A DNA stretch of 31,196 nucleotides from an uncultured Actinomycetota bacterium (lineage in GTDB: Bacteria; Actinomycetota; Actinomycetes; Propionibacteriales; Nocardioidaceae), in contig CAVXHO010000035.1 in NCBI GenBank assembly GCA_963761515.1, forward strand, positions 1 through 31,196, written 5' to 3'. The position numbers and the translations under genes are program-made. Shown here piece by piece: positions 24 through 31,196 of the stretch (within the stretch, counting starts at the first letter, position 1; every line of letters begins with the position of its first letter). Below the pieces are notes generated by a model. The model saw only the letters and a program-made list of their open reading frames with translations. It was not told where the DNA came from and made no database searches.

Positions 24-3806
<3,783 letters not shown>

Positions 3807-3970
3807 GGTCAGGTCACTCCTCGCTTCGTGGGTCACCAGCCTAGGAACGCGGGTCCGACCGGTGGACCTGGTTCCCGCATCGTGACACCGGGAGGAGGGG
3901 CCGACCAATTCCCGGATCGCCAGCGCGCCGCGCCGGGTCGTCGCCTGGCCCGGGTGACTACTGTTGTCGA

Positions 3971-4819: not shown

Positions 4820-4840
4820 ACCGTCCCGGCTGGCTGTGAA

Positions 4841-4906: not shown

Positions 4907-4910
4907 GGGG

Positions 4911-6146: not shown

Positions 6147-6214
6147 GCGTGGAGACTACGGCAGCCCTGACGGCACCCGGCCGTCCGGCCCGCCCACAGG
6201 ACGGTGGACGACGG

Positions 6215-7893: not shown

Positions 7894-7899
7894 GGCCGC

Positions 7900-9284: not shown

Positions 9285-10274
9285 GTGAGCGCTGTGATCG
9301 TGGACAGCGCCGTCTACCGCCAGGGCAAGCGCATCGTCGACGACCTGCCGCCCAGCGAGCTCGGCAGGGTCCGCAAGCTCGCCTCCGAGCCGGGCGACTT
9401 CGTCTGGGTGGGCCTGTACCAGCCGAGCGAGGAGGAGCTGGCGACGGTGGAGGAGGAGTTCGGCCTGCACCCGCTGGCCGTCGAGGACGCCTTCAACGCC
9501 CACCAGCGGCCCAAGCTCGAGCGGTACGGCGACACCCTGTTCCTGACCCTGAAGTCCCTCTGGTACGTCGATGAGAACGACGCGGTCGAGACCGGCGAGA
9601 TCAACATCTTCGTCGGCGACGACTTCATCGTCACCGTCCGCCACGGTGAGGGCTCGGAGCTTCACACCGCCCGCACCGACCTCGAAGCCAGGGCGAAGGT
9701 CCTCACCCACGGCCCGTCCGCCGTCGTGTACGCCGTGTGCGACCGGGTCGTGGACGGCTACCTCTCGGTGATGGAGTCCCTCGAGGAGGACGTCGACGAG
9801 GTCGAGACCTCGGTGTTCTCGGCCCAGCGCACCAACGACTCGGCGCGGATCTACACGCTCAAGCGCGAGATCGCCGAGGCACGACGCGCGGTGATGCCGC
9901 TGCGCGAGCCGATGCGTCGCTTCGCCACGGGCGCCGTACCGGGCATCCACGAGGACGCTGCACCGTTCTTCCGGGACGTGCTCGACCACCTCACCAAGGT
10001 CGCCGAGACCGTGGACGGGCTCGACCAGCTGCTGTCCACGGCCTTCGAGGCACATCTCGCTCAGATCCAGGTGACGCAGAACGAGGACATGCGCAAGATC
10101 TCTGCCGGGGTCGGGCTCGTGGTCGTGCCGACCCTGATCGCCGGGGTCTACGGCATGAACTTCGATCACATGCCGGAGCTCGGTTGGGCCTTCGGCTATC
10201 CGTACGCCCTCGCGCTGATGGTCTTGAGCGTGGTCGGACTCTGGATCGCCTTCAAGCGCTCCGGCTGGCTGTGA
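9285..10274 (+). CDS. corA: Magnesium/cobalt transporter CorA
   Basis: Carries the YGMNF (GMN) motif and two C-terminal transmembrane helices. GTG start at 9285 with an AGGGG Shine-Dalgarno. An alternative GTG lies at 9270. Confidence 0.88.
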   Translation: MSAVIVDSAVYRQGKRIVDDLPPSELGRVRKLASEPGDFVWVGLYQPSEEELATVEEEFGLHPLAVEDAFNAHQRPKLERYGDTLFLTLKSLWYVDENDAVETGEINIFVGDDFIVTVRHGEGSELHTARTDLEARAKVLTHGPSAVVYAVCDRVVDGYLSVMESLEEDVDEVETSVFSAQRTNDSARIYTLKREIAEARRAVMPLREPMRRFATGAVPGIHEDAAPFFRDVLDHLTKVAETVDGLDQLLSTAFEAHLAQIQVTQNEDMRKISAGVGLVVVPTLIAGVYGMNFDHMPELGWAFGYPYALALMVLSVVGLWIAFKRSGWL

Positions 10275-10277
10275 GGA

Positions 10278-10342
10278 CTGCGGTTTGGTCCCAAACCGCA
10301 GGTTTCGGGTCCGAAGGACTGCGGTTTGGGACCAAACGGCGG
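10278..10342. repeat. Tandem pair of the same REP-like palindrome (CTGCGGTTTGG-TC-CCAAACCGCAG, then an imperfect copy) between convergent corA and uppP
   Basis: Perfect 24-nt palindrome at 10278-10301 followed by GTTTCGGG. The second copy at 10319-10342 has 2 mismatches. Confidence 0.8.
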
Positions 10343-16185: not shown

Positions 16186-16635
16186 TTATCGGGTCGATCG
16201 CTCCGGATCCGGGGCGATCACCGGTCGCCGGGCGGCCGACATCTCCGCTCGGCGCCGGATCTCGCGCAGCATCCTCTGCGTCGCGACCTGGTGGGCGTGG
16301 GTGCGCATGAGCAGGGCGTGGTAGAGCCGGCCCCTCAGGCCGGGGAACCGGGCGAACGTGTCGGCCGTGACCCGCGCTCCGGGCCCCTCAGGCGCGACGC
16401 GGAACACCAGGCGGTACGTCGCGAACCGGTGTCGGCCGGCCAGGGTGAGCTGGCGGTGGGGCCTCGTGTCGATGATCGTGAAGCCACTCTCGGGCACGGT
16501 CCCGAGCAGCCGGGAGAGCACCCCGTGGCCCGTCCTGCTGAGCGCCGTCGCATAGCCGACGACCGCGGGCCAGGTCTCGTCCTCACCCGCCCGGACCATC
16601 AGCCCGTGCTCGTCCACGAACGGCAACGTGGTCAT
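16186..16635 (-). CDS. SRPBCC (polyketide cyclase/START-like) family protein
   Basis: 149 aa. Its start ATG overlaps the stop of the upstream cytochrome b gene (ATGA at 16632-16635). Confidence 0.45.
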   Translation of the reverse strand: MTTLPFVDEHGLMVRAGEDETWPAVVGYATALSRTGHGVLSRLLGTVPESGFTIIDTRPHRQLTLAGRHRFATYRLVFRVAPEGPGARVTADTFARFPGLRGRLYHALLMRTHAHQVATQRMLREIRRRAEMSAARRPVIAPDPERSTR

Positions 16636-18272
16636 GAGCCCACTCTGCCTCGCCCGGTCAAGGCGGAACGCTCGGTGGTGTCGGACGACGCGTCATCGAG
16701 CTCCCCTCGGGTGGGGGTCGGGACCCGATCGGCGTACAGGGCTCGCGAGAGGCGGCCGCGGATCCGCATCCGCCACCGCCCCCGCCGTAGCACCCCCCGG
16801 TCGGTCTCCGGCTCCGGCGCCACCACCTCGGGGAGATCTCGGGCGGTCAGCCGGTAGGCCCGCCCGACCTCGAGCGGCGCGTGCCGTTCGGTGTAGCCGC
16901 CCTCGGGCGACCGTACGACGACGCCGGTCTCGCGGCCGTGCAGCAACCGGTCCCGGTCCGCCCGCTGGAGCCCCAGGCACCAGGCGCGGGCCACCAGGAA
17001 CACGACCACCGGTACGACGAGCACCGCCGCCCGCATCACGTAGGTGATCTGGTTCAGGCTCAGGTGGAGCCGGGTGGCCAGGATGTCGTTGCCGCCTGCC
17101 AACCAGAGGAGCCCGTAGACGCAGACCATCGCGGCCAGGAAGGCCGTTCGCGTCGGCGCGTCACGCGGACGCTGGAGCAGATGGTGCTCGCGGCGGTCGC
17201 CCGTCACCCACGCCTCGAGGAACGGCCATCCGACGATCAGCCCGAACAGCACGAACGGCAGCACCTGGCCCGGCAGGAGCACGTTCCACGAGACCGTGTG
17301 CCCGGCCACGTGGGTCTCCCAGCCGGGCATGATCCGGAGCAGACCCTCGGCGATCGCCAGGTACCAGTCCGGCTGCGATCCGGCCGTCACCTTGGACGGG
17401 TCGTAGGGGCCGTACTTCCAGACCGGGTTGATCGAGAGCAACGCGCCCATCAGCGCCGTCACCCCGAACACCATGCAGAAGAAGCCGGTCGTCTTCGCGA
17501 CGTAGACCGGCAGCAGCGGATAGCCCACGACGTTCTTCTCGGTGCGACCCGGGCCGGGCCACTGGGTGTGCTTCTGGACGAAGACGAGGGTCACGTGCAA
17601 CGCGACCAAAGCCAGCAGGATCCCGGGCAGGAAGAGCACGTGCAGGACGTAGAAGCGAGGGATCACCGAGTCGCCGGGGAACTCGCCGCCGAAGAGCAGG
17701 AACGACAGGTAGGTGCCGACCACGGGGGTGGCCTTGATCAGGCCGTCGGCGATCCTCAGACCGGTGCCCGACAGCAGGTCGTCCGGGAGGGAGTAGCCGA
17801 GGAACCCCTCCAGGATCCCCACCAGGAGCATGGTCGCCCCGATCAGCCAGCTCACCTCGCGCGGCTTCCGGAAGGCGCCGGTGACGAAGACCCGCATCAT
17901 GTGCACGAACATCGCGGCGATGAAGATCATCGCGGCCCAGTGATGCATCTGCCGGATCAGCAGACCACCCCTGACGTCGAACGTGAGGTGCAGCGTCGAG
18001 GCGTAGGCGTCCGACATCGGCACGCCGCGCAGCTGGGCGTACGAGCCCTGGTACGTCGACTCCGACATGCTCGGGTTGAACCAGAAGGTCAGGAAGGTGC
18101 CCGTGACCAGCAGCACCACGAACGACCAGAGCGCGATCTCCCCGAGCATGAACGACCAGTGCTCGGGGAACACCTTGCGCAGGTAGCCCCGGCTGAGCCG
18201 GGCCAGGCTCAGCCGGTCATCGGCCCACTCCGCGGCGCGGGCGACGCCGCGACCACGCGTCCCTGTGCTCAT
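16632..18272 (-). CDS. qcrB: Cytochrome b of the bc1 (menaquinol-cytochrome c reductase) complex, QcrB family, stand-alone copy
   Basis: 546 aa. N-terminus MSTGTRGRGVARAAEWADDRLSLARLSRGYLRKVFPEHWSFMLGEIALWSF and the heme-ligand His regions (RQMHHWAA, FYVLHVLFLPG) match actinobacterial QcrB. GGAGGAG lies 5 nt before the ATG at 18272. No Rieske or cytochrome c1 gene is adjacent. Confidence 0.88.
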   Translation of the reverse strand: MSTGTRGRGVARAAEWADDRLSLARLSRGYLRKVFPEHWSFMLGEIALWSFVVLLVTGTFLTFWFNPSMSESTYQGSYAQLRGVPMSDAYASTLHLTFDVRGGLLIRQMHHWAAMIFIAAMFVHMMRVFVTGAFRKPREVSWLIGATMLLVGILEGFLGYSLPDDLLSGTGLRIADGLIKATPVVGTYLSFLLFGGEFPGDSVIPRFYVLHVLFLPGILLALVALHVTLVFVQKHTQWPGPGRTEKNVVGYPLLPVYVAKTTGFFCMVFGVTALMGALLSINPVWKYGPYDPSKVTAGSQPDWYLAIAEGLLRIMPGWETHVAGHTVSWNVLLPGQVLPFVLFGLIVGWPFLEAWVTGDRREHHLLQRPRDAPTRTAFLAAMVCVYGLLWLAGGNDILATRLHLSLNQITYVMRAAVLVVPVVVFLVARAWCLGLQRADRDRLLHGRETGVVVRSPEGGYTERHAPLEVGRAYRLTARDLPEVVAPEPETDRGVLRRGRWRMRIRGRLSRALYADRVPTPTRGELDDASSDTTERSALTGRGRVGS

Positions 18273-18454
18273 GTGCTCCTCCCCGGTCGGGCGCGGCGAG
18301 TTCACCGGCCCGAGAGTGAAGACACCGCCGGCCGTCCGGTTGTGACATCGCGCCCGCCGGGCCCTCTCGAGCCGGCGGCGGATGCGACCGAGATCCCGGA
18401 GGACCAGCTCCTGGCCGCGTGGCGCGAGGAGCTGGATCGCTGAAGCTGGCGGGG

Positions 18455-19423
18455 TCAGGCCTCGCCGCGGTCGGGGGTGGGGTCGAGGAAGACGTAGCGC
18501 ACCTCCGGGAACCGGCCCCTGATGCGCTCCTCGACGTCGTCGGCCGCATGCTCGAGCTCCTCCGGCGAGAGATGGTCGGCCAGGTCGACCCGCGCCGCCA
18601 CCAGCACCTGGTCGGGCGACAACCGCATGGTCAGCAGCTCGAGCACCGAGTCGACCCCTTCGGTCGATGCGATCAGCCGGCTGATGTTCTCGCGGAGCGG
18701 CTGCGGTGCGGCCTTGCCGATGAGGTACTGCTGGTTCTGCCGACCAAGCCCGTAGGCGGCGACGACCAGGAGCGCGGCGATGGCCAGCGATGCCAGGCCG
18801 TCGTACGTGCGGCCGCCGGTGGCGGCGTCCAGTGCCAGCGCGCCGGCGGCGAGCAGGAGCCCGACGAGGGCGACCCCGTCCTCCCACACCACGGCACGCA
18901 GTGCCGGGTCTGCCTCGTGCCTGAGGTGACTGATCATGCCGACGCCGGCCCCGCGGGCGGTGCCGCGCAGCTGCCAGACCGCCCGCAGGAACGACGTGCC
19001 CTCGAAGACGAACGAGAACCCGAGCACCACGAAGGGCCAGGTCGGGGAGCCCGGCGGCTCCGAGCTGGTGAGGGCCTTGACCCCCTGGTACGCCGAGAAC
19101 CCGGCCCCGAGCACGAAGATGCCGACGGCGGCCAGGAAGGACCAGAAGTAGCGCTCCATCCCGTAGCCGAACGGGTGCTCCTCGTCCGGCTCCTTGCGGC
19201 TGCGATGAAGAGCCGCCATCAGGAACCCTTGGTTCACGGTGTCGCCGATCGAGTGCGCTGCCTCGGACAGCATCGCCGCCGACCCGGAGGCGAGCCCCGC
19301 CGCGAGCTTGGCGACGGCGATCAGCAGGTTCGCCGCGCCGGCGACCAGCACAGTCGGGGTGGACTCGTCCTCGGCCATGCCCACGTCGTACCCGATCACG
19401 GCCAGGGCACCGCTCTGTGGCAT
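18455..19423 (-). CDS. Cation diffusion facilitator (CDF) family metal efflux transporter
   Basis: Has six transmembrane helices and the HSIGD and H-x-x-x-D motifs in TM2/TM5. An alternative ATG start at 19378 gives MAEDEST. Confidence 0.82.
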   Translation of the reverse strand: MPQSGALAVIGYDVGMAEDESTPTVLVAGAANLLIAVAKLAAGLASGSAAMLSEAAHSIGDTVNQGFLMAALHRSRKEPDEEHPFGYGMERYFWSFLAAVGIFVLGAGFSAYQGVKALTSSEPPGSPTWPFVVLGFSFVFEGTSFLRAVWQLRGTARGAGVGMISHLRHEADPALRAVVWEDGVALVGLLLAAGALALDAATGGRTYDGLASLAIAALLVVAAYGLGRQNQQYLIGKAAPQPLRENISRLIASTEGVDSVLELLTMRLSPDQVLVAARVDLADHLSPEELEHAADDVEERIRGRFPEVRYVFLDPTPDRGEA

Positions 19424-19441
19424 GCCGGTGGCCGGGGCTGC

Positions 19442-20182
19442 TCAGCGTTCGGAGGCACCGAGTCCTTGGGCGATGCCCCAGAGGACCGCCTGGGAGCGGG
19501 TCGCCGCGCCGATCTTGCGGTACGACGAGCGGACGTAGGACTTGACCGAGTTGATGCTGACGGTGAGCGCCGCCGCGATCTCCGCATTGCTGTAGCCGGC
19601 CGCAATGAGGTCGAGCACATCCGCCTCTCGCGGCGTCAGTCCGGCTTCCTCCCGGGACCACCGGACCTGGACGTCTGCCGGGTCCGCCGGTTGCGCCGGC
19701 CCACTGACGACGGGATCTCCCCGACCGACCCGCTCGATCGCCTCGACGAGCTGCCGTGCGGGCAGCGACTTCGCGATGTAGCCGCGGTAGCCGTGCTGCA
19801 GGGCCGCGGTCACGAGATCGGCCCTGGTCTCCCACGAGTAAGCGGCGACCCTCGAGCCCCCTGCGGTCGGGGGCGCGGGGAGCGCGCGCACGACGCCTTC
19901 ATGGACGCCACTGGGGTAGCAGTCGAAGAGGATGACGTCCGGGGACGTGGGGCTGCTCGACGAGGCGCTGGTCCCCGCTCCGGCATGGTGGATCCGCACC
20001 CGGGCGGCATACGGCGCGAGCATCTGCTGGAGCCCTCGGGCCACGAGCTCGCAGTCACCGAGCAAGGCGACCGTGAGTGCAGTGGGGCGCGCCGAGGGCA
20101 CCGAAGGTCTGTCGCCGCGGGAGGCTGCGGGCAGCGCGTCTCCCGCGCACCCCGCATCGGGGCGCACAACGAGCCGAGTCAT
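19442..20182 (-). CDS. LuxR-family transcriptional regulator with an atypical receiver-like N-domain
   Basis: C-terminal LuxR helix-turn-helix (LTPREADVLDLIAAGYSNAEIAAALTVSINSVKSYV). The REC-like domain has GD in place of the DD acidic pair but keeps the ILFD phospho-site analogue. ATG at 20182 with an AGGA. Confidence 0.78.
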   Translation of the reverse strand: MTRLVVRPDAGCAGDALPAASRGDRPSVPSARPTALTVALLGDCELVARGLQQMLAPYAARVRIHHAGAGTSASSSSPTSPDVILFDCYPSGVHEGVVRALPAPPTAGGSRVAAYSWETRADLVTAALQHGYRGYIAKSLPARQLVEAIERVGRGDPVVSGPAQPADPADVQVRWSREEAGLTPREADVLDLIAAGYSNAEIAAALTVSINSVKSYVRSSYRKIGAATRSQAVLWGIAQGLGASER

Positions 20183-20334
20183 CCGGGGTCCTGGGTTGAC
20201 TAGTCGTGGTACCGCTGCTCGTGATCAAGCAGCAACTTCGCATCTCAGGTGACGACGAGGTGCTCTCACACGTTACTCGCCGACCCGCGAACGGTTCTGA
20301 AATCGCGCTCGCGAAAGTACTCTGAGCATCGTCA
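20183..20334. promoter_or_regulatory. Divergent intergenic region between the LuxR regulator and the first GAF-ANTAR gene, relatively AT-rich
   Basis: A local GC drop (ttctgaaatcgcgctcgcgaaagtactctgagcatcg) between divergently transcribed regulators. No specific operator could be assigned. Confidence 0.3.
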
Positions 20335-21081
20335 GTGCAGCATCCGGGGGCGTCGCTCGCGACCGGGGAGGGAGTGTCGTTGGAACCGCTTCCGGAGACC
20401 GAAGAGGCTCTCGACGAGTACCTCGAGGAAGACGACTCCGACCTGCGAGCCGTGCTCATGGAGCTGGGGCGGCGCGCCGTCGAGCTGGTGCCCTCGTGTG
20501 TCGGCCTGAGCCTGGGCATGGTGAAGGACGGCCTGACCTTCACGCTGGTGGCCACCAGCGAGCAGGTGGCGACCATCGACGCGGCGCAGTATCTCGACGG
20601 CGGACCGTGCGTGGACGTGGCCACCGGCTCCGACGTTCTCGACGTGGACATCCCCGACCTGCTCGACGAGGGGAGGTGGTCGGCGTTCGCGATGACGAGC
20701 GCGGCTCATGGAGTGCGGACCACCTTGTCCCTTCCCATCGTCCGCGACGGTCAGCTGGTCGGAGGCGTCAACCTGTACGCCGCGGAGCTCCACGCTTTCG
20801 ACGGCAAGCACGAGGCGCTGGCGATGGCTCTGGGAGCCTCCGCGGAAGGAGCGGTGGCCGACGCAGACCTGGAGTTCACCTCGCGCGCTCGCGCGGTCGC
20901 CACACCCGCAACCATGGCAGACCTGCGCACCATCGACATGGCCGTCGGCATCCTCGCCGCGCGAGACCGCACGGACGTCGACACCGCCAGGGCACAGCTC
21001 CAGGACTCGGCCACGCGAGCAGGAGTGACTCTCGTACAGGCTGCCAGCGTCGTCGGCTACCTGCGGGAGAAGCGCCGTTGA
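20335..21081 (+). CDS. GAF domain plus ANTAR (RNA-binding antiterminator) domain regulator
   Basis: N-terminal GAF-like region. C-terminal ANTAR motif LRTIDMAVGILAARDRTDVDTARAQLQDSATRAGVTLVQAA. GTG at 20335. An alternative TTG at 20380 lies behind a GGGAGGGAG. Confidence 0.72.
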   Translation: MQHPGASLATGEGVSLEPLPETEEALDEYLEEDDSDLRAVLMELGRRAVELVPSCVGLSLGMVKDGLTFTLVATSEQVATIDAAQYLDGGPCVDVATGSDVLDVDIPDLLDEGRWSAFAMTSAAHGVRTTLSLPIVRDGQLVGGVNLYAAELHAFDGKHEALAMALGASAEGAVADADLEFTSRARAVATPATMADLRTIDMAVGILAARDRTDVDTARAQLQDSATRAGVTLVQAASVVGYLREKRR

Positions 21082-21120
21082 TCCGGAGACCCGGGGAGCC
21101 GATCTGACCATGCTGCCGGA

Positions 21121-21843
21121 TCAGCCGTCCGCGGTGAGTGCCCTCATGACCCGCTTGTCGTGGAGGACGTCTCGCGCCAGATCGGTCAGCTTCACCCGGT
21201 GGTGTCGCGCATACCGCCTCAGGATGTTGAACGCCTCGTCGACGTCGACGTCGAAGGTGCGGGCAACGGCACCCTTGGCCTGCTCGATCACGATCCGGCT
21301 GTTGAGCGCGAACTGCAGCTGCTCCGTGAGCTCCTCCGCGCGCCGGAGACCACGCTCCTGCATGAGCGCGATGGTGGCGACGTCGGCGAGGGCTCTGGCC
21401 ACGCGGCGCTCGTCCTCGCCCAGGAACGAGCTCTGGACGCGGAACACGTTCATGGCGCCGATCACCTGATCCCGCAATCTCAGGGGGAAACAGTGAGTCG
21501 TGGTGAACCCCAGCTCGATGGCCCTCGGAGCGAACGCCGGCCACCGCGCCATCGACGATGCGATCTCGACATCCGCCACCTCCTCGCCCGAGCTGAAACA
21601 GTCCAGGCACGGACCTTCGGCGTGCTGTACCTGGAAGAGCTCGAGCAGACGGGCATCCTCGTTCGAGGAGGCCATCGGGCTGAGTCCCCCGCGATCGGCC
21701 AGCATGACCCCGACGGCCGCGGACCCCGTGACCTCGGCAGCGTCGACCGCGACGGTGTGCAGGAAGTCGACCAGGTCGAAGTCGTCGACCAGGGTGTCCG
21801 CCACCTCAACGAAGACATCCGCCAGGCGTGTACTGCTGATCAC
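21121..21843 (-). CDS. GAF plus ANTAR domain regulator (paralogue 2)
   Basis: C-terminal ANTAR motif LNSRIVIEQAKGAVARTFDVDVDEAFNILRRYARHHRVKLTDLARDV. Confidence 0.75.
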   Translation of the reverse strand: MISSTRLADVFVEVADTLVDDFDLVDFLHTVAVDAAEVTGSAAVGVMLADRGGLSPMASSNEDARLLELFQVQHAEGPCLDCFSSGEEVADVEIASSMARWPAFAPRAIELGFTTTHCFPLRLRDQVIGAMNVFRVQSSFLGEDERRVARALADVATIALMQERGLRRAEELTEQLQFALNSRIVIEQAKGAVARTFDVDVDEAFNILRRYARHHRVKLTDLARDVLHDKRVMRALTADG

Positions 21844-21879
21844 GGTCCCTCACCCACTCTCGCTCTAGGCTCATTATGG

Positions 21880-22647
21880 TCACGAGCCGGCGCCCGGTGA
21901 TCCGTCCGGCGTCGGCAGATGTGCGCCCCCGAGGACCTCGCGAGCCACATCGAGGAGGCTCACGTCGCGGCTGAACGCGTGAGCGCGCATCAGCGACAGT
22001 GCGTCTGCCAGGTCGACCTCCAGGTCGACCATCACCATCCCCTGCGCCTGATGGATCTCCGCCCGACGTTCCAGGGCTTCGACGAGCCGTGCGTTCACAT
22101 CGCCGGCCGAGGCTCCCGGATCGGGGTCGAGCAGTCGCTCCACCGCCAGATCGGCGAAGGTCAGGGCGAGTGAGACCTGGTCGGACCCCAAGAGACCGGG
22201 ACTCGCGGCGTACAGGTCCAGCACCCCCAGCCGGACGGCGCCGACGTGGAGCGGCAGGGAGAAGCAGGCGGCGATCCCGAACCCACGGACGGCACTGACG
22301 TACCCGGGCCAGATGTGCTGACCCTGCTCGAGGAGATCCGGCGCGAACACCGGGCGGGACTGGCTGTAGGCGTCCAGGCTCGGTCCTTCCCCGGTCGCGA
22401 AGGCGGCCTCCCCGACCGCGCGGGCTACCTCGTCGGAGCTGGCCACCACACCGCCGCCGTTCGGGCGGTTCAGGAGGTGGACCGACGCGCCGGCGAGGCT
22501 CAGTGTTGCGGTCGCGGCCCGGCAGATGCGCTGCAGGACGGCCGGCAGGTCGTGCACGTCCTCGTCCGCCCTGGCCGCCGACATGGCCATCAGGGCGAAC
22601 TCACGCCGTCCCGGTCCCGGAGGGCCTGTTCCGTCGTGCGCAGTCAC
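21880..22647 (-). CDS. GAF plus ANTAR domain regulator (paralogue 3)
   Basis: C-terminal ANTAR motif LERRAEIHQAQGMVMVDLEVDLADALSLMRAHAFSRDVSLLDVAREV. It lies 36 nt upstream of paralogue 2 on the same strand. An alternative ATG start at 22590 exists. Confidence 0.75.
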   Translation of the reverse strand: MTAHDGTGPPGPGRREFALMAMSAARADEDVHDLPAVLQRICRAATATLSLAGASVHLLNRPNGGGVVASSDEVARAVGEAAFATGEGPSLDAYSQSRPVFAPDLLEQGQHIWPGYVSAVRGFGIAACFSLPLHVGAVRLGVLDLYAASPGLLGSDQVSLALTFADLAVERLLDPDPGASAGDVNARLVEALERRAEIHQAQGMVMVDLEVDLADALSLMRAHAFSRDVSLLDVAREVLGGAHLPTPDGSPGAGS

Positions 22648-22736
22648 GGGCCTGCTCTCGATGGGCGCGGACGTAGCAGGTCACCCTACTCGGCAGGGAT
22701 ACGGCGACCAGCGCGTCGTGCAGGTCGACGTCTCAG

Positions 22737-23561
22737 TCAGGTAAGGGCGATGGCCGCGTCCGGCTCGGCGACCTTGAACGTGAACGACTCCTCCAGGTAG
22801 AGGTGCACCTGCTCGGCGTCGTGGTGGTGGTAGCCGACCGAGATGTCCTGCCCGACGTCGAGGAGGAAGTCGTCACCCCGCTGGCTCACCACCAGGGCTC
22901 CGGTGAGCCCGGGCGAACGGACGACGCTGCCCGACTCGAGGACCCGGCTCAGGTGGTCCATCAGCGGGTAGCCGCCGTGCTCGGTGGTGGAGACGATCGC
23001 GGTGTAGCGCTCGGGGTCGATGGCCAGGGCATAGGGGCCCTCGATGCCGTTCTGGCGCAGCTCGTCGGCCGCCACCGCCACGATGCCGGGGTACGCCGAG
23101 CAGTCGTCGCCCAACGGCCGTGACGGGTAGGGCGAGGCTTCGGTCATGCCCACGATGTCGGCGGCGGACCAGCCGTTCAGGACGGCCCGGTTCTCCAGCT
23201 CGGCGGCGACCCGTGCGGCTCGCGCGAGGTCGTCGAGCTCGGGGTCGCGGCTCCCGCGCTGAAGGTCGTCGATCTCACCCCGGGACACGGTGAACGGCAC
23301 GCGGTACTCCGCCAGCGGCAGCACCCGGCGCCTCCGGAGGAGGACACCCGTGGCGTCGAGGCCGGCCGGTGGGGCCTCGAGGGTGTCGGTCCGGCCCAGC
23401 GACATCGCGTCGTGCCGCCAACCGCCGGGCCCGACCCAGTCGACGAGACGACGGGCCGCCAGCAGCGGGGTCAGCCGCTCCTTGGCCTCCTCGTCGATCG
23501 CCTTCCAGGCCAGGTCGGGGATGGGGGCATGGTCGCGGAGGAGATGGTTGGGAGACGTCAT
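22737..23561 (-). CDS. Family 1 encapsulin nanocompartment shell protein (linocin M18-like, HK97 fold)
   Basis: 274 aa. N-terminus MTSPNHLLRDHAPIPDLAWKAIDEEAKERL, PFTVSRGEIDD, and C-terminus GYHHHDAEQVHLYLEESFTFKV match encapsulins. AAAGGA Shine-Dalgarno. The ATG overlaps the cargo gene stop (ATGA). Confidence 0.9.
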   Translation of the reverse strand: MTSPNHLLRDHAPIPDLAWKAIDEEAKERLTPLLAARRLVDWVGPGGWRHDAMSLGRTDTLEAPPAGLDATGVLLRRRRVLPLAEYRVPFTVSRGEIDDLQRGSRDPELDDLARAARVAAELENRAVLNGWSAADIVGMTEASPYPSRPLGDDCSAYPGIVAVAADELRQNGIEGPYALAIDPERYTAIVSTTEHGGYPLMDHLSRVLESGSVVRSPGLTGALVVSQRGDDFLLDVGQDISVGYHHHDAEQVHLYLEESFTFKVAEPDAAIALT

Positions 23562-24157
23562 GCTGATGGTCCTTTCAGGCTTCCGATGCCGAGCGAGCCG
23601 TCGGTCCGGCGCTCGGTCGAGCCGTCGTCGTTGGGGTGGAGGTCGGACTCGATCTCGTCGACGTACTCCTGCGGGTCCTTGTCGTCGGTGTCGACGCCGG
23701 CGGTGGTCGGATGGCGGTCCAGGTACTCCTCGAGCTCGCGACCGAGCTGCTCGCGGAGCTCGGGGGCCGCGTGCTGCCGGAAGTCGGCGATCCCGTCGCG
23801 CTCCTCCTCGGCCATGTGCTCGTCGTTGGCCTTGCGCGTCGCGAGCACGGCCGCCCACCACTGCTCGCTGGCGACCGGTTGGCGGGCGGCGTCGTGGACC
23901 CCGTCCCGGATGTCGTTGTGGTCGCCGATCGCGTCCAGGGTCTCGTCCTCGGGGTCGTCCTCGCCTCGCGCCAGCAGCTGCGGGTAGAAGACGGCCTCCT
24001 CCCCTGCTGCGTGTACGTCGAGCCGGGCCGCGAGGGGCTCCCAGATCGCGGCGATCGCCGCCACGTCGGGAGCCGACACGGCGTAGAGGTCGTACAGGGC
24101 GATGAACTGTCTGCGGAACCACGCATGGTCGCGCAGGATCACCTCGGTCACGTCCAT
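23558..24157 (-). CDS. Hemerythrin-like (HHE cation-binding) encapsulin cargo protein with a C-terminal targeting peptide
   Basis: Has H...HxxxE-type motifs (ILRDHAWF, VHAAGEE, IGDHND, DEHMAEEE). The C-terminus RTDGSLGIGSLKGPSA matches the family-1 encapsulin cargo-loading peptide consensus (SLxIGSLK). Start ATG at 24157, or TTG at 24196. Confidence 0.8.
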   Translation of the reverse strand: MDVTEVILRDHAWFRRQFIALYDLYAVSAPDVAAIAAIWEPLAARLDVHAAGEEAVFYPQLLARGEDDPEDETLDAIGDHNDIRDGVHDAARQPVASEQWWAAVLATRKANDEHMAEEERDGIADFRQHAAPELREQLGRELEEYLDRHPTTAGVDTDDKDPQEYVDEIESDLHPNDDGSTERRTDGSLGIGSLKGPSA

Positions 24158-24298
24158 GGTGACCACCGTAGCCAGATCGGGCCGCTCCGAAACCAACCGT
24201 CAGGTGGGTGGTCCGTTACGGGGGAGGTCGCGCTGCCCGGGCGGCCCTAGCGTCGTCCCTCTCTCGTGCCTGCTGACCCGCCACCCGAAGGACGACCC

Positions 24299-26667
24299 AT
24301 GAGCCCAGACCGGCACGCCCGCAGCATCCTGCCGATCCCCGACCGGCCGACGCCGGGCCTGACGACGTACGACGCCAAGGACCCGGACTCGTCGTTCCCC
24401 GCCATCGAGCCTCTGCTGCCGCCCGAAGGCGCTCCCAACGTGCTGATCGTGCTGCTGGACGACGTGGGGTTCGGTGCCTCGTCGGCCTTCGGAGGGCCGT
24501 GCCAGACCCCCACGGCCGAGCGGCTCGCAGCCGGAGGTCTGCGCTACAACCGGTTCCACACGACCGCCCTGTGCGCGCCTACGCGGCAGGCGTTGCTGAC
24601 CGGTCGGAACCACCACTCGGTCGGGATGGGCAGCATCACCGAGACCGCCACCTCGGCTCCGGGCATGAGCTCGCTGCGGCCGAACACCAAGGCGCCGCTG
24701 GCGACCACGTTGAAGCTGAACGGGTACTCGACCGCCCAGTTCGGCAAGTGCCACGAGGTGCCGGTCTGGCAGTCGTCGCCCATGGGCCCGTTCGACGCCT
24801 GGCCCACCGGTGGCGGCGGGTTCGAGACGTTCTACGGCTTCATCGGCGGGGAGAACAACCAGTACGACCCGGCCCTCTACAACGGCACGACGCCCGTCGA
24901 GCCTCCCGCGACGCCCGAGGAGGGCTACCACCTCACCGAGGACCTCACCGACCATGCGATCAGCTGGGTGCGTCAGCAGAAGGCTTTGATGCCCGACAAG
25001 CCCTTCCTCGTCTACTTCGCACCGGGCGCCACCCACGCCCCGCACCACGTCCCGTTGGAGTGGGCGGACAAGTACGCCGGCCAGTTCGACGACGGCTGGG
25101 ACGCTCTGCGCGGGCGCACCCTGGCGCGGCAGAAGGAGCTCGGCGTCGTACCCGCGGACACCGAGCTCACGGCGCGGCACGACGAGATCACCGCCTGGGA
25201 CGACATGCCCGACGAGCTCAAGCCGGTGCTGGCGCGGCAGATGGAGGTCTACGCCGGGTTCCTCGAGCACACCGACCACCATGTCGGCCGGCTCATCGAC
25301 ACCCTGGCCGACCTGGAGATCCTCGACGACACGCTCGTCTACTACATCATCGGCGACAACGGCGCCTCGGCCGAGGGCACCATGAACGGGGCCTTCAACG
25401 AGATGGCCAACTTCAACGGCATGGCCGCGGTCGAGACGCCCGAGTTCATGGTCAGCAAGGTGGACAGCTTCGGCACGCCAGACTCCTACAACCACTACTC
25501 GGTCGGGTGGGCGCTGGGCGATGAACTCCCCACTCCAGTGGACCAAGCAGGTCGCCTCCCACTGGGGCGGCACCCGCAACGGGACCATCGTGCACTGGCC
25601 CCGCGGGATCGAGGAGCGCGGCGGTCTGCGGTCGCAGTTCACCCACGTGATCGACATCGCGCCCGACGATCCTCGAGGTCGCCGGGCTGCCGGAGCCGAC
25701 CATGGTCAACGGCGTCATGCAGTCGCCGATCGAGGGCACCAGCATGATGTACAGCTTCAACGGACCCGACGAGCCGGAACGCCACGACCTCCAGTACTTC
25801 GAGATGTTCGGCAACCGGGGCATCTACCACCGGGGCTGGAGTGCTGTCACCAAGCACAAGACGCCGTGGCTGATCCTGGACCCCCACATGGGCGCCTTCG
25901 ACGCCGACGTGTGGGAGCTGTACGACGGCAGCAGCGACTTCAGCCAGGCCCGCAACCTCGCGGCCGACGATCCGCAGCGGCTCGCCGACCTGCAACGGCT
26001 CTGGCTGATCGAGGCCACGAAGTACAACGTCCTCCCCCTCGACGACCGGTCGGGCGAGCGGCTGAACGCCGACCTGGCCGGGCGGCCGACCCTCATCCAC
26101 GGCAACTCGCAGCTGCTGTTCTCGGGCATGGGGCGGCTCACCGAGAACAGCGTGGTGAGCATCAAGAACAAGTCGTTCTCGGTCACCGCCGACGTCGAGC
26201 TGGGCGAGGCCCCGGCGGAGGGCGTGCTGATCGCGCAGGGGGGTCGCTTCGGGGGCTGGGCCTTCTACGTCAAGGGCGGCAAGGCCAAGTTCGTGTACAA
26301 CGTGCTCGGCATCCACGAGTTCGCGACGGAGTCCGATGACCCCCTTCCCGCCGGTCACCACCAGGTGCGCGTGGAGTTCGCGTACGACGGGGGCGGCCTG
26401 GCCAAGGGTGGAGGTGTGACGTTGTACTGCGACGGCGACCAGATCGGCGCGGGCAGGGTCGAGATGACCCAGCCGATGATCTTCTCCGCCGACGAGACCA
26501 CGGATGTCGGGTACGAGTCCGGAACCACCGTGACCCCGGACTACACCACGGCGACCAGCCGCTTCACCGGCCGGATCAACTGGATCCAGATCGACCTCGG
26601 CGACGACGACCACGACCACTTCATCGACCCCGACGAGCGGCTGCGGATCGCCATGGCGCAGCAGTGA
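24299..26667 (+). pseudogene. Arylsulfatase (Cys-type, formylglycine-dependent), reading frame broken by two +1 frameshifts
   Basis: Has LLDDVGFGASSAFGG and the CAPTR signature (ALCAPTRQALLTGR). The frame shifts after ...YSVGWA (about 25515) into NSPLQWTKQVASHWGGTRNGTIVHWP, and again after FTHVIDIAP (about 25663) into ILEVAGLPEPTMVNGVMQSPIEGTSMMYSFN. The C-terminal domain continues to the stop at 26667. Confidence 0.85.
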
Positions 26668-26701
26668 CCGGTCCGCACGTCGAGCCGAGGCTGGAGCGTC
26701 G

Positions 26702-27373
26702 ATGAACGCGGTGATCGGTGACCTGCTGCCGGTGGCGCTCGGCGTGGCGATCTCGCCGATGCCGATCATCGCCGTGATCCTGATGCTGCTCTCGCCACGG
26801 GCGGGCGCCGCCAGCCTCACGCTGCTGGCCGGCTGGATCGTCGGGATCACCGTCGTGCTCACGGTGGTGGTCCTGGTCGCGAATCCCGCCGACGACTCGC
26901 AGGCGGGCAACCCGTCCACCTTGGCCTCGGTGGTCAAGATGCTGCTCGGTGCGGCCCTCGTCCTGATCGGCGTACGCCAGTGGCGACAGCGTCCCAAGGA
27001 GGGCGCGACGGCCTCGGTGCCCACGTGGATGGGCGCCATCGATCAGGTCACGCCGCTCAAGGCCTTCGGGCTGGGCGCCCTGCTGTCGGGCGTGAACCCC
27101 AAGAACCTCGCGCTCGGCCTGGCCGGTGGGGTGATCATCGCCTCGGGAGGGCTCTCGTCCGGCCAGACGGTGGTGGCGATCGCGGTGTTCGTACTGATCG
27201 GGTCCTCGACGATGGCGGTCCCCGTCGTCGGCTACCTGGTGGCACGTGAGCGGATGCAGGCACCCCTGGGTCGGCTGCGCGACTGGCTCATCGACAACAA
27301 TGCGGTGGTGATGTCGGTCCTGTTGCTGGTCATCGGTGTCGTCATCTTCGGGAAGGGACTGGCGGGTCTCTGA
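26702..27373 (+). CDS. GAP-family (DUF2910 / Sap sulfolipid-addressing-protein-like) integral membrane protein
   Basis: 223 aa, highly hydrophobic with about 6 transmembrane helices. It sits between the sulfatase and the FGE gene. Confidence 0.55.
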   Translation: MNAVIGDLLPVALGVAISPMPIIAVILMLLSPRAGAASLTLLAGWIVGITVVLTVVVLVANPADDSQAGNPSTLASVVKMLLGAALVLIGVRQWRQRPKEGATASVPTWMGAIDQVTPLKAFGLGALLSGVNPKNLALGLAGGVIIASGGLSSGQTVVAIAVFVLIGSSTMAVPVVGYLVARERMQAPLGRLRDWLIDNNAVVMSVLLLVIGVVIFGKGLAGL

Positions 27374-27399
27374 CCCGCCGGGGAGCCGAGGAGGCCGCG

Positions 27400-27735
27400 A
27401 TGAGCACAGCGGACGGCCACAGCGCGTGCTGCGCCCCGGCGGTCTCCGACGTCCCGTCGACCGCCGCGGACCGGGTCGCCGACGTCGCTCCCCGCTCGGG
27501 AGCGCGCCCGCACGGGATGGTGCCGGTCGCAGGCGGCCGGCTGCTGATGGGCGACCCGTTCTCCGAGGGCTACCCGGACGACGGCGAGACCCCCGTCCAC
27601 GCGGTCGACGTCCCGTCGTTCCTCATCGATGCGACCCAGGTGACGAACGCCCAGTTCGCGACCTTCGTCAAGGAGACCGGGTGGGTCACCGACGCCGAGG
27701 ACCTCGGCATCTGGTGTTCCACCCGGTCTCCTTGA
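27400..27735 (+). pseudogene. Formylglycine-generating enzyme (FGE/SUMF1-type sulfatase-modifying factor), N-terminal about 105 aa only, truncated at the inversion junction
   Basis: GMVPVAGGRLLMGDPFSEGYPDDGETPVHAVDVPSFLIDATQVTNAQFATFVKETGWVTDAEDLG matches the FGE N-terminus. The expected continuation (WSFVF...) is replaced after about 27715 by reverse-complement sequence. Confidence 0.75.
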
Positions 27736-27989
27736 CGCAGGTCGTGACTGGGCGTTCGTCACCTGGGTCGCATCGATGAGGAACGACGGGACGTCGACCG
27801 CGTGGACGGGGGTCTCGCCGTCGTCCGGGTAGCCCTCGGAGAACGGGGCCGCCCATCAGCAGCCAGCATGCGACCGGCACCATCCCGTGCGGGCGCGCTC
27901 CCGGCGGGGACACCGGCGACCCGGTGCGGCGGTCGACGGGACGTCGGAGACCGCCGGGCGCGGCACCGCGCTGTCGCCGTCCGCTGTGC

Positions 27990-28660
27990 TCATCACGGCC
28001 TCCTCGGCTCCCGGGCGGGTCGAGACCCACCAGTCCCTTCCCGAAGATGACGACACCGGTGACCAGCACCAGGACCAACATGACCACTGCATGTCGTCGA
28101 TGAGCCGTCGGCGCCGACCCAGGGGTGCCTGCTTCGCTCACGTGCCACGAGGGGCCGACGACGGGGATCGCCATCGTCGAGGACCCGATCGCTACGAGCA
28201 CCGCCATCGCCACCACCGCTGGCCGGACGAGCCCTCCCGAGCGATGATCACCGCCCGGCCGGCCGGCGCGAGGTTCTTGGGGTTCACGCCCGCCAGCAGC
28301 GCGCCCGCGAAGGCCTTGAGCGGCGTGACCTGGTCGATGGCGCCCGTCCACCTGGGCACCGCGGCCGTCGCGCCCTCCTGGGGACGCTGTCGCCGCTGGC
28401 GTCGCCGATTAGGACGAGGCCACGCCGGCAGCATCTTGACCACCGAGGCCGAGGCGGACAGGTTGCCCGCCTGGAGTGGTCGGCAGATGGCGACCAGCCC
28501 ACGCCGTGAGCACGCGGTGGTCCCGACGATCCAGCCAGCCAGCGCGTGAGGCTGGCGGCCGCCATGGCGAGAGCAGCGTCAGGATCACGGCGATGATCGG
28601 CATCGGCGAGATCGCCACGCCGAGCGCCGCCGCATCAGGTCACCGATCACCGCGTTCATC
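27990..28660 (-). pseudogene. Degraded inverted copy of the GAP-family membrane protein gene
   Basis: The minus-strand frame 27686-28351 contains GSSTMAIPVVG and VMLVLVLVTGVVIFGKGLVGL, matching the GAP protein C-terminus. It is interrupted by indels. Confidence 0.5.
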
Positions 28661-28689
28661 GACGCTCCAGCCTCGGCTCGACGTAGCCG

Positions 28690-30950
28690 GCTTGTCTGCG
28701 CCATGGCGATCCGCAGCCGCTCGTCGGGGTCGTTGAAGTCGTCGTCGTCGTCGTCGCCGAGGTCGGTCCGGCTAGGTTGCGTCCGTCCGTGCAGCCGCTG
28801 GTCGCCGTGGTGTCATCCGGGGTCACGTGGTTCCCGACTGGTCCCGACATCCGTCGTCTCGTCGGCGGAGAAGGTCATCGCTGGGTCATCTCGACCCTCC
28901 CCGCGCCCGAATATGCGTCGCCGTCCCAGTACAGCGTCCCACCTCCACCTTGGCAGGCCGCCCCGTCGTCGCGAACTCCACGCGCACCTGGTGGTGACCG
29001 GCGGGGGGTGATCGGACTCCGTCGCGAACTCGTCGATGCCGAGCACGTTGCCACGGACTTGGCCTTGCCGCCCTTGACGTAGAAGGCCGCCCCGAAGCGC
29101 CCCCTTCGCGATCAGCACGCCCGCCGCCGCGTGCTCGCCCAGCTCGACGTCGGCGGTGACCGAGAACGACTGTTCTTGATGCTCGCCCACGCTGTTCTCG
29201 GTGGCCTCCCCATGCCCGAGAAAGCGGCTCCGAGCTGCCGGGGATGAGGGTCGGCGCTCGGCAGGCGGTCGGGTGGCCGTCCCCGACGGCGACGAGGGGG
29301 AGGACGTTGTACTTCGTCGCCTCGATCAGCCACAGCCGTTCCAGGTCGGCGAGCCGTTGGATCGTCGGCCGCGAGGTTGCGGGCCTGGCTGAGGTCGCTG
29401 TTGCCGTGGTAGGCCCCACACGTCGGCGTCGAGGCGCCCAGTGGATGCGGGGTCGGCCACGGCGCTGCTCGGTGACGGCGCTCCAGCCCCGGTGGTCGAT
29501 GCCCCGGTTGCGAACATCTCGAAGTAGTAGAGGTCGTGGCGTACCGGCTCCTCGGGCCCCATTGAAGCTGTACATCATGCTGGTGCCCTCGATCGGCGAT
29601 TGCATGACGCGTTGACCATGGTCGCTCCGGCGGCCCGGCGACCTCGAGGATGACGGCGCTAGTCGACCACATGGGTGAACTTCGTCGCGGCCGCCGCGCT
29701 CCTCGATCCCGCGGGCGTGACGTGGTTCCGTTGCGGTACGCCCCAGTCGGAGGCGACCTGTGGACCACTGGAGTGATCATCGCCGGCCCCACCCTACCGG
29801 TGGTGGTTGCGGATCGGCGTGCCGAAGCTGTCCACCTTGCTGACCGTGACCGTCGCTCGACCGCGGCCATGCCGTTGAAGTTGGCCATCTCGTTGGAGGC
29901 CCCGTTCAGGTGCCCTCGGCCGAGGCCCATTGTCGCCGATGATGTCGTAGACCAGCGTGTGGTCGAGGATCTGCGGGTCGGCCAGGGTCTCGATCAGGCC
30001 GCCGACATCGTGGTCGGTGTGCTCGGGTCCCGGCGTAGCCCTCCATCTGCCAGCCAGCGCCGCTTGAGCTCGTCGGCATGTCGTCCAGGCGGTCATCTCG
30101 TCGTGCGCCGTGGCTCGGTCTCCGCGGGTTCGACGCCAGCTCCCCCTTCTGCCGCGCCAGGTCGCCCACGCAGAGCGTCCCAGCTCGTCGTCGACTCGGG
30201 CGGCGTACTTGTCCACCCACTCCGACGGGACATGGTGCGGGGCGTGGGTGGCGCCCGGTGCGAAGTGAGCGAGAAAGGCTTGCTCGGCGGTCTGCCTGCT
30301 CACCCAGCTGATCGCATGGTCGGTCTGGTCCTCGGTGAGGTAGTAGCCCTCCTCGGCGTCGCGCGAGCTCGACGGGCGTCGTGCCGTTGTACAGGGCCGG
30401 GTCGTAGTGGTTGTTTTCCCCGCCGATCAAGCCGTTACATTCGAACCCACCGCCACCGGTCGGCCAGGCGTCGAACGGTCCCATGGGCGACGACTACAGA
30501 CCGGCGCCCGTCGCACTTGCCGAACTCGGCGGTCGAGTACCCGTTCAGCTTGACGTCGTCGCCAGCAGCGCCTTCGTGTACGGCCACAGCGGGCTCATGC
30601 CCGGAGCCGAGTGGCGCGGTCGGTGATGCGCCCATCCCGCACCGAGTCGGTGTTCCGACCGGTCAGCCGACACCTACCGGTAGGCGCGCACAGGGCGGTC
30701 GGTGGAACGGTTGTAGCGCAGACCTCCGGCTGCAAGCCGCTCGGCCGTCGGGGTCTGGCCGGCCCTCCGAAGGCCGACGAGGCGCCGAACCCCACGTCGT
30801 CCAGCAGCACGATCAGCACGTTGGGAGCGCCTTCGGCGGCAGCAGAGGCTCGATCGGCGGGAACGAGCGTCCGGGTCCTTGGCGTCGTACGTCATCAGGC
30901 CAGGCGTCGGCCGGTCCGGGATCGGCAGGATCTGCGGGCGTGCCGGTTGG
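28690..30950 (-). pseudogene. Heavily degraded second copy of the arylsulfatase gene within the inverted arm (fragments in all frames)
   Basis: Minus-strand fragments such as MQSPIEGTSMMYSFN (28886-29605), MGPFDAWPTGGGGFE...GGENNHYDPALYNGTTPVE (29906-30484) and MLIVLLDDVGFGASSAFGGP (30595-30819). Confidence 0.55.
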
Positions 30951-31196
30951 GCTCATCGGTCATCCTCGGGGTGGTGGGTCAGCAGGCGCGAGAGGGACGA
31001 CGCTCGGGCCACCGCACCTCCCCGTAACGGACCACCCACCTGACGGTTCGTTCGGACGACCCGATCTGGCTACGGTGGTCACCATCGACATGACCGAGGT
31101 GATCCTCGCGACCATGGTGGTTCCGCAGCAGTTCGTCGCCCTGTACGCCTCCACGCCGGTCGGCTCCCGACATGGCGGCGATCGCCGCGATCTGGG

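Follow-up and report, generated by a model that had tools for sequence, protein, structure and literature searches.

Fold-back reads, in which two segments of one read derive from the same locus on opposite strands, are a documented library artefact of both ONT and PacBio sequencing (Heinz, Meyerson & Li 2026, PMC12870357). They amount to 0.1-0.6% of ONT gDNA reads, even when these are aligned to their own reference assembly; in fewer than half of them the two segments are separated by intervening sequence, and such reads can cause tangles in assembly graphs and false structural variants (PMC12870357). Along similar lines, palindromic chimeras have been described that arise after amplification (Pacasus, bioRxiv 10.1101/173872). 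When inverted duplicates are sequenced by nanopore, base-calling is less accurate on the second arm, where quality is low and bases are both miscalled and missed, and this arm turns out shorter than the preceding one (Spealman, Burrell & Gresham 2020, PMC7229812). This mechanism of second-arm noise may not cover every case, because the direct-cDNA fold-back reads inspected by Heinz et al. presented no signal disturbance around the breakpoints (PMC12870357).

We have analysed a window of 31,196 bp from a Nocardioidaceae-like actinobacterium. It is a whole contig, its truncated FGE being recorded on a contig of exactly this length, so that the structure found at its end stops at a real contig end, as had been supposed in a preliminary description of this DNA. 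The terminal ca. 3.5 kb are linked to the preceding ca. 3.6 kb by 44 collinear inverted seed pairs, far beyond chance. Arm 1 (24040-27684, forward strand, 3645 nt) and arm 2, its noisy reverse complement (27719-31196, reverse strand, 3478 nt, i.e., 4.6% shorter), gave in a global alignment 3252 matches and 214 mismatches, together with 25 insertion events and 143 deletion events in arm 2 with respect to arm 1. This corresponds to an identity of 88% if gaps are counted and of 94% if they are not. Arm 2 is delimited by this alignment, by the error tests and by tblastn (see below), and it ends exactly opposite position 24040 of arm 1. The inverted symmetry noticed in the preliminary description is therefore borne out by both the seed pairs and the alignment. 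Its inverted, divergent copy stands as well, although arm 1 begins at 24040 and not at 24120, and the ca. 85% identity that it gave was too low. Its junction at 27716 is near the true switch at 27719-27723, and a spacer of 34 nt separates the arms.

As in the published artefacts, both segments lie at the same locus on opposite strands, with 34 nt between the breakpoints where the criterion used for fold-back reads is ca. 200 bp (PMC12870357), and no adapter separates them. The difference is that our case is known from a deposited consensus and not from a read, for which the breakpoint is expected within 10% of the midpoint (PMC12870357). As in the data of Spealman et al. (PMC7229812), the noise affects the second arm and not the first, the second arm is about as long as the first but shorter, and deletions far outnumber insertions, although the cases described by these authors were genuine genomic inverted duplications from yeast and human.

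Arm 1 contains the 5' end of a hemerythrin gene, a Cys-type sulfatase, a GAP/SfLAP membrane protein and the 5' part of a formylglycine-generating enzyme (FGE). This is the gene order of the Actinomycetota sulfatase maturation cluster (Cys-type sulfatase, GAP/SfLAP and FGE) as found in two related contigs, L002 and L003. The hemerythrin gene (23558-24157, reverse strand) was assigned by Pfam and by collinearity with another relative, L041; its first ca. 118 nt (24040-24157) fall within arm 1 and have their mirror image at 31030-31196, where the contig ends. The arylsulfatase (24299-26667, forward strand; Pfam Sulfatase, 9e-55) has the CxPxR motif in the form LCAPTR, which bears out its earlier classification as Cys-type. 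Its frame is split within arm 1 by two single-C insertions, one at 25514 and the other within the CCC at 25662-25664, and homologues pass both sites in a single frame. The GAP/SfLAP gene (26702-27373, forward strand; PF11139 by Pfam) is intact. The FGE fragment (27400-27723, forward strand) covers only positions 3-62 of a profile of 255, and its ORF enters the fold-back and stops at 27735. We measured a cut after ca. 100-108 codons, in agreement with the ca. 105 originally reported. The N-terminus that remains is 83-90% identical to those of the relatives, and the contig departs from the cluster as known in them in that its FGE appears truncated and its sulfatase frameshifted.

The relatives carry an FGE that continues past the junction. 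The 307-kb contig L041, which shares 88-90% identity and is syntenic with our contig between cytochrome b and hemerythrin, crosses the junction into the remaining FGE and proceeds with a response regulator, OmpA and further genes, adding up to at least 10 kb of ordinary genes past the junction position. In L003 (87% identical) the GAP gene is followed by an FGE of more than 270 aa that runs through the junction, and a 781-aa sulfatase, a GAP and a 328-aa FGE are present in L002, a more distant relative. No inverted arm is present in either L041 or L003, which are relatives at 87-90% identity belonging to other strains. The preliminary description had set this comparison as a criterion for an artefact, namely that related genomes should have a continuing FGE and no inverted arm, and that is what both of them display. 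Scanning the genome collection with GAP retrieved distant relatives only (47-57% identity), and the contigs with the closest sulfatase homologues (L039 and L040) have another gene order and are uninformative on the junction. Judging by the alignment, by the outgroup polarity described below and by flanks collinear with L041 at 88-90% identity, arm 1 is genuine genomic sequence.

The anatomy of the junction could be established by three-way comparison with L041 and L003. The spacer or loop (27685-27718, forward strand; GTCACCGACGCCGAGGACCTCGGCATCTGGTGTT) is a natural stretch of 34 nt from the FGE coding sequence, without 4 nt (CCGC) that are present in L041. Inside it lies a small 7-bp palindrome, GCCGAGG-A-CCTCGGC (27694-27708), which creates an apparent centre of symmetry at 27701. 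It is native and not a product of the fold-back, because the identical sequence occurs in L041. The arms meet at a microhomology of 5 nt, with GGTGG at 27680-27684 as its upstream half and CCACC at 27719-27723 (both given on the forward strand). The latter are the last bases in common with the natural downstream FGE (TTCCACC followed by TCGCC in L041), with blastn aligning L041 as far as 27723, and they double as the first bases of the reverse-complement arm; it is this comparison with the relatives that places the true switch point at 27719-27723. The microhomology could be a coincidence. No adapter was found at the junction among the ONT ligation and rapid, 2D hairpin, SMRTbell and Nextera sequences, whose best local alignments were at chance level and none near the junction. 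The DNA MFE of the local hairpin, -10.7 kcal/mol, ranks at the 30th percentile among the 52-nt windows of L041, and because this stability is ordinary the site is no obvious hotspot. We also considered a strong natural 14-bp quasi-palindrome at 27701 as a hotspot, which was discarded as it exists in L003 only and the hairpin is ordinary in L041-like sequence.

Using L003 as outgroup, the differences between the arms can be polarised. It agrees with arm 1 at 172 of 183 positions and with arm 2 at the other 11, i.e., 94% of the polarisable changes fall on arm 2. The mismatches are evenly spread over codon positions (61/65/61), and 26% of them are synonymous where 25% would be expected under random hits. 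Indel events and substitutions between arms stand at 168:214. The deletions in arm 2 are frequent, as previously noted, and their size is 1-9 nt instead of the 1-15 nt first given; single bases account for 117 out of 144 and multiples of three for only nine. There are 95 transitions to 119 transversions, with a marked strand asymmetry both in substitutions (72 C<->T vs. 23 A<->G, p=3e-7) and in deletions (37 of T vs. 16 of A, p=1e-3). As an internal control, arm 1 was compared over the same 1.5 kb with L003, that is, with real divergence, and with arm 2. The first comparison gave an indel/substitution ratio of 0.07, codon positions of 39/23/115 and symmetric transitions, whereas the second gave a ratio of 0.76 and codon positions of 30/31/20. 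The noise is uniform along all of arm 2, with ca. 12 non-matching columns per 100. GC3 periodicity is lost there, and tblastn of the arm-1 proteins yields only ca. 40% amino acid identity, with frame-hopping, so that the absence of intact ORFs from this arm, already remarked in the preliminary description, is confirmed. An enrichment of single-base deletions in homopolymers was not found, except weakly in runs of at least 5, and is uninformative as a platform fingerprint. To judge from these spectra, the differences between the arms, which lie on arm 2, look like read error and not evolution.

One stretch of arm 2 departs from this pattern. At 27747-27847 there is a perfect match of 100-101 nt to positions 27555-27655 of arm 1, with a probability of ca. 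0.0025 under geometric noise. This error-free island does not fit a uniformly noisy single read and is not predicted by the model of Spealman et al. (PMC7229812), and it has to be assumed in addition that, for instance, this stretch was polished locally or that more than one short fold-back read contributed.

We believe, with a probability of roughly 0.9, that positions 27719-31196 are foreign to the genome of this organism and represent the second half of one palindromic long read that the assembler added at the contig end. This is the fold-back assembly artefact favoured from the beginning, and it is supported by the outgroup polarity, the read-error signature, the position at the contig end and the FGE of the relatives. 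The real sequence runs through the 5' part of FGE up to ...GGTGTTCCACC at 27723, past which the contig reads the complementary strand backwards, from GGTGG (27684) to 24040, which is the contig end. The 3' end ...CCACC would have annealed to the GGTGG that lies 34-38 nt upstream in that strand, and extension would have followed, a snap-back or template-switch synthesis that took place most probably at library preparation. The resulting hairpin-like molecule would have been sequenced along one strand and then back along its complement. Arm 2 would then be covered by about one read, and hence never polished. If the reads were nanopore, the first arm may have re-annealed and the second translocated faster, with wrong and missed bases as a result, and such a speed-up would account for the ca. 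12% deletion-biased noise and for the 4.6% shorter arm. The true locus would continue with the remaining ca. two-thirds of FGE. Its natural continuation past 27723 would read ...TCGCCCTGCGCGAC... (HLALRD...), and the missing 3' two-thirds would read ...AVFHLALRD...PWWVAVRGATWRSPEGPGS..., followed by the response-regulator and OmpA genes as in L041. If 27719-31196 is artefactual, the same holds for the cut through FGE and for the inverted duplication that the contig seems to show.

Alternatively, and we regard this as unlikely, the fold-back could be purely informatic, with the template and then the complement passing through the same nanopore and the base-caller leaving them unsplit, in which case the hairpin molecule never existed. 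Follow-on complement reads are the basis of the 1D2 and duplex protocols. They would likewise put a palindromic read at the contig end, and poor base-calling where a read begins could account for the 39 nt that arm 2 lacks at its start; a hypothesis of Soneson about them appears as a citation in PMC12870357. However, there is no adapter remnant at the junction or elsewhere among the adapter sequences named above, and the 5-nt microhomology with a natural loop of 34 nt suits self-priming better than two abutting reads. Besides, a normally threaded complement should be normally accurate, in contrast to the ca. 12% deletion-biased error seen here, and degradation of the second arm needs both arms on one strand (PMC7229812). 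Heinz et al. also argue for library preparation as the origin of fold-backs (PMC12870357).

Another possibility, to which we give quite little credence, is that the palindrome was formed in vivo and never fixed. It would have arisen in one cell of the population, where a double-strand break was capped by a hairpin or replication switched template, and would have been captured by one long read. Its junction anatomy (microhomology and short loop) would equal that of in-vivo fold-back inversions, and snap-back in vivo and in vitro cannot be told apart from the sequence alone. The technical prior is, however, much higher, given that fold-backs represent 0.1-0.6% of ONT gDNA reads (PMC12870357), and arm 2 ends where the molecule of arm 1 would, while a perfectly symmetric read is treated by Heinz et al. 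as diagnostic of an artefact (PMC12870357). In either case, such a molecule is not a feature of the genome of the organism. If true, the GGTGG/CCACC pair in FGE would mark a single-molecule snapshot of palindrome formation in an uncultured soil actinobacterium.

The preliminary description had kept as its alternative a real, decaying inverted duplication by which FGE was truncated; it would be fixed in the genome, with arm 2 as a pseudogene copy. The symmetry is real and there is a 5-nt microhomology at the junction; short inverted repeats or microhomologies are known to give rise to fold-back inversions in vivo, and pseudogene decay in bacteria is biased toward deletions. Biological fold-back inversions and palindromic amplification at short inverted repeats share with our contig the 5-nt microhomology, a unique loop of 34-38 nt and the long arms, but not the read-error signature of arm 2, the termination at a contig end or the absence from relatives. 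We consider this duplication highly improbable, as it is contradicted by the spectra, the polarity, the contig end and the relatives. The indel/substitution ratio between arms (0.76) exceeds the value for real divergence at the locus (0.07) more than tenfold, the strand asymmetry of substitutions and deletions is unexpected for mutations fixed in double-stranded DNA, and 94% of the polarisable changes are on one arm. Moreover, arm 2 terminates at the contig end and is not embedded in further genome sequence, and in the relatives FGE is intact and a second arm is absent. The palindrome, 3.6 kb long with a spacer of 34 nt, would also have had to persist while nearly perfect, and long palindromes are unstable in bacteria (SbcCD-dependent cleavage).

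Finally, a linear replicon with a covalently closed hairpin telomere, sequenced around its end, would match the geometry exactly, down one strand and back up the other, but the probability of this reading is practically negligible, as the turn-around lies inside conserved FGE coding sequence through which L041 and L003 continue, at least 10 kb of ordinary genes follow the junction position in L041, the contig bears chromosomal housekeeping genes (metH, a CysS/MshC-type ligase, cytochrome b and BacA) and no telomere-resolvase-like protein is found among its Pfam hits.

The significance of the fold-back artefact is one of data hygiene and not of biology. Read literally, the contig would imply that the sulfatase-activating enzyme has been lost, that the sulfatase has become a pseudogene and that a 3.5-kb palindrome is present, and each of the three is an artefact or a probable consensus error. 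The contig is apparently deposited in NCBI and ENA, the truncated FGE of 111 aa stands in the protein collection as the cluster representative P0121, and ORF predictions within arm 2, if there are any, would be noise. Trimming of the contig at ca. 27723 is advisable. The combination of outgroup polarisation, codon-position profile, strand asymmetry and indel/substitution ratio, a test that requires nothing but sequence, told read noise from evolution here, and the same test could flag palindromic contig ends in other long-read MAGs.

Outside arm 2 there are residual single-base indels, the two in the sulfatase and another two in a histidine-phosphatase gene, with two frameshifts within positions 8490-9212, and from this pattern the contig is evidently a long-read consensus in which such indels persist. 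Related public contigs bearing Flye-style names contain comparable split genes, and the related MFD MAGs come from nanopore sequencing and metaFlye assembly (PMC12313526). Single-base frameshifts are suspect in this contig and in the long-read assemblies of its relatives, and for the frameshifts of the sulfatase, as for the truncation of FGE, an error of assembly or consensus is a better explanation than loss of the gene.

The inverted symmetry at the end of the contig is real. A repeat search of the window found 44 inverted pairs, all collinear, that link 24.1-27.7 kb with 27.7-31.2 kb, and a global alignment of 24040-27701 with the reverse complement of 27702-31196 contained 3252 matches and 214 mismatches; relative to arm 1, the second arm has gained 29 nt in 25 insertion events and lost 195 nt in 143 deletion events. 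The 3.5-kb inverted copy of the preliminary description and its frequent deletions are therefore borne out, with small coordinate corrections (arm 1, 24040-27684, 3645 nt; arm 2, 27719-31196, 3478 nt); the proposed identity of ca. 85% becomes 88% with gaps counted and 94% without them. Non-matching columns are spread evenly along the whole arm, at ca. 12 per 100. Arm 1 carries the 5' end (24040-24157) of a hemerythrin gene (23558-24157, - strand), a Cys-type arylsulfatase (24299-26667, + strand; LCAPTR motif; Pfam Sulfatase, 9e-55), a GAP/SfLAP membrane protein (26702-27373, + strand; PF11139) and, from 27400 onward on the + strand, the first ca. 100 codons of the formylglycine-generating enzyme (FGE; profile positions 3-62 of 255), where the gene is indeed cut and the reverse-complement arm follows. 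Elsewhere in this 70% GC window every gene shows strong GC3 periodicity; the second arm no longer does, and the arm-1 proteins match it at only ca. 40% amino-acid identity with constant frame-hopping, so that it holds no intact gene copy, as had been described. Used as a query, the FGE fragment found the truncated 111-aa product of the window itself (P0121, 100% identical, from both NCBI and ENA), and the longest contig recorded for it has 31,196 bp, the exact length of the window. The window is therefore the complete contig, and the point where arm 2 stops, level with arm-1 position 24040, is a true contig end.

A comparison with relatives had been named in the preliminary description as a way of recognizing an artefact. 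The 90% cluster of P0121 includes P0131, encoded on a 307,541-bp ENA contig (L041). By blastn, the tract from cytochrome b to hemerythrin (window 16244-24213) corresponds to L041 1528-9870 at 88-90% identity, the 3,055 nt of sulfatase and GAP (24214-27268) are missing from L041, and the intergenic region with the FGE 5' part (27269-27723) corresponds to 9867-10328 at 89%. Past the junction, L041 carries the remainder of FGE and after it a response regulator, OmpA, LysR, galK and further genes, and the arm sequence is present only once. A 2-kb soil-metagenome contig (L003, 87% DNA identity to the window) has the same gene order of sulfatase C-terminus, GAP and FGE, the last (...VTDAEDLGIGAVFHLALRD...) open for >270 aa, and in the more distant L002 the sulfatase (781 aa) is intact and is accompanied by GAP and an FGE of 328 aa. 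These findings are what the preliminary description had expected of an artefact. The sulfatase and GAP block, absent from the close relative L041 with clean boundaries (ca. 9867-9870) and found in L003 and L002, is by these alignments a presence/absence polymorphism adjoining FGE, and such strain variation might have caused the assembly graph to break nearby.

At the junction, the natural sequence in L041 reads ...CCGGATGGGTCACCGACGCCGAGGACCTCGGCATCTCCGCGGTGTTCCACC|TCGCCCTG..., and the window, compared with it, reads ...CCGGGTGGGTCACCGACGCCGAGGACCTCGGCATCT(4 nt missing)GGTGTTCCACC|CGGTCTCCTTGAC..., the tail past the bar being the reverse complement of what precedes GGTGG. Arm 1 ends in this GGTGG (27680-27684), followed by a spacer of 34 nt of native FGE sequence (27685-27718) and by CCACC (27719-27723), with which arm 2 starts. 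These 5 nt are a microhomology, occurring both in the natural sequence downstream and as the complement of GGTGG. What looks like the centre of symmetry, at 27701, is a 7-bp palindrome native to the spacer, and the local hairpin has no unusual stability (-10.7 kcal/mol, 30th percentile of L041 windows). Between 28 and 128 nt beyond the switch point at 27719 there is an error-free island of 100-101 nt (27747-27847, pairing with 27555-27655), for which P is ca. 0.0025 under uniform noise of ca. 12%; it may come from local polishing or from several short fold-back reads.

The differences between the arms look like read error. With L003 as outgroup, arm 1 agrees with it at 172 of the sites that differ and arm 2 at 11. 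Arm-2 mismatches fall on the three codon positions as 61/65/61, their synonymous share is 26% against 25% expected for random hits, and the transition to transversion ratio is 95:119. Single bases account for 117 of 144 deletions and multiples of three for only 9. Substitutions (C<->T 72 vs. A<->G 23, p=3e-7) and deletions (T lost 37 times vs. A 16, p=1e-3) are strand-asymmetric, as would be expected if one read strand carried the errors but not if mutations had been fixed in duplex DNA. The same 1.5 kb served as internal control: from arm 1 to L003, i.e., real divergence, the indel/substitution ratio is 0.07, substitutions by codon position are 39/23/115 and C<->T vs. A<->G is 25 vs. 34, whereas from arm 1 to arm 2 the values are 0.76, 30/31/20 and 26 vs. 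9.

The contig end, the relatives' FGE and the error signature all agree with the fold-back assembly artefact favoured in the preliminary description, to which we give a probability of about 0.9; the inverted arm is not a real genomic feature. Starting from what was observed here (geometry, junction, noise signature, contig end and absence of the arm from relatives), we infer the remaining steps. A strand ending in ...CCACC would have snapped back onto the GGTGG 34-38 nt upstream and been extended, most likely during library preparation, where fold-back reads have been argued to arise (Heinz et al., PMC12870357). The product would have been sequenced along arm 1 and back along its complement, and the assembler would have extended the contig end with the second half of this molecule, leaving arm 2 unpolished because only about one read supported it. 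Nanopore sequencing of an inverted duplicate has been shown to give a second arm of low quality, with wrong and missed bases, that is shorter than the first (Spealman et al., PMC7229812), which fits the 143:25 deletion bias and the 3478 vs. 3645 nt found here. By sequence alone, a single fold-back molecule formed in vivo would look the same, and even so it would be no property of the genome. An unsplit pair of template and complement reads is a less likely technical variant, given the microhomology at the join, the degraded second arm and the lack of sequence resembling the query adapters at the junction or elsewhere in the window. The genuine, decaying inverted duplication truncating FGE, which had been offered as the alternative, is contradicted by the arm stopping at a true contig end, by relatives with FGE past the junction and, in L041, a single arm copy, and by polarity, codon, indel and strand signatures of read error. 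A hairpin telomere is contradicted by relatives that read through the turn-around site, inside coding sequence. The sole value of the arm is as a warning: the contig should be cut at ca. 27723, and the truncated FGE and the arm-2 ORFs ignored.

Outside arm 2, the contig probably contains some consensus errors. Along 1-24 kb each GC3-defined coding segment is one ORF, with the single exception of a histidine-phosphatase gene (His_Phos_1, 8490-9212, - strand) with two compensating frameshifts, near ca. 9132 and ca. 8905, whose path runs through MATVILLRHGRTSANASGTLAGRTPG, then another frame, then the original again. The arm-1 sulfatase is split into three frames by two extra C's (25514 and the CCC run 25662-25664); since the intervening 49 codons show perfect conservation against homologues when read in the shifted frame, these are consensus errors or very recent changes and not old decay, probably the former, and the gene is probably no pseudogene. 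Related public contigs with Flye-style names have the same kind of split genes: the sulfatases of L039 (10001-12369, 545 + 229 aa) and L040 (10001-13025, 629 + 316 aa) and the FGE of L041 (10001-10982, 200 + 76 aa). Splits or frameshifted tails are frequent among sulfatase and FGE homologues from long public ENA contigs (also P0004, P0016 and P0030), and most of the best 120 sulfatase matches have 400-700 aa against ca. 780 aa, some being labelled partial or lying on short contigs. This suggests that indel errors are widespread when these high-GC genomes are assembled from long reads. Among the relatives, the MFD MAGs were assembled with metaFlye from nanopore data (PMC12313526); because of this, the single-base frameshifts and the split genes, the window is very probably a consensus of long reads only. 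The sulfatase homologues that match best (86-89% identity) carry the label Marmoricola or Nocardioidaceae. In L039 a dense transposase cluster (653-8210; ISL3, two copies of IS21 IstB, Mu-like and ISAzo13 families) precedes the sulfatase locus, and may indicate a mobile or rearrangement-prone setting for these genes.

The other 24 kb are ordinary actinobacterial chromosome, with metH, a CysS/MshC-type ligase, BacA, CorA, cytochrome b, a CDF transporter, three GAF-ANTAR regulators and an encapsulin. The encapsulin (Linocin_M18, 2.7e-74) lies directly downstream of the hemerythrin, and the pair (22737-24157, - strand) is kept in L041 (8394-9815). The hemerythrin C-terminus, ...DGSLGIGSLKGPSA, resembles an encapsulin cargo-loading peptide. 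Encapsulin systems with hemerythrin cargo are already known (bioRxiv 10.1101/085266; PMC8346489). Upstream of the pair, the three GAF-ANTAR paralogues are adjacent (20335-22647: 20335-21081, + strand; 21121-21843 and 21880-22647, - strand), a cluster partly present in L041.
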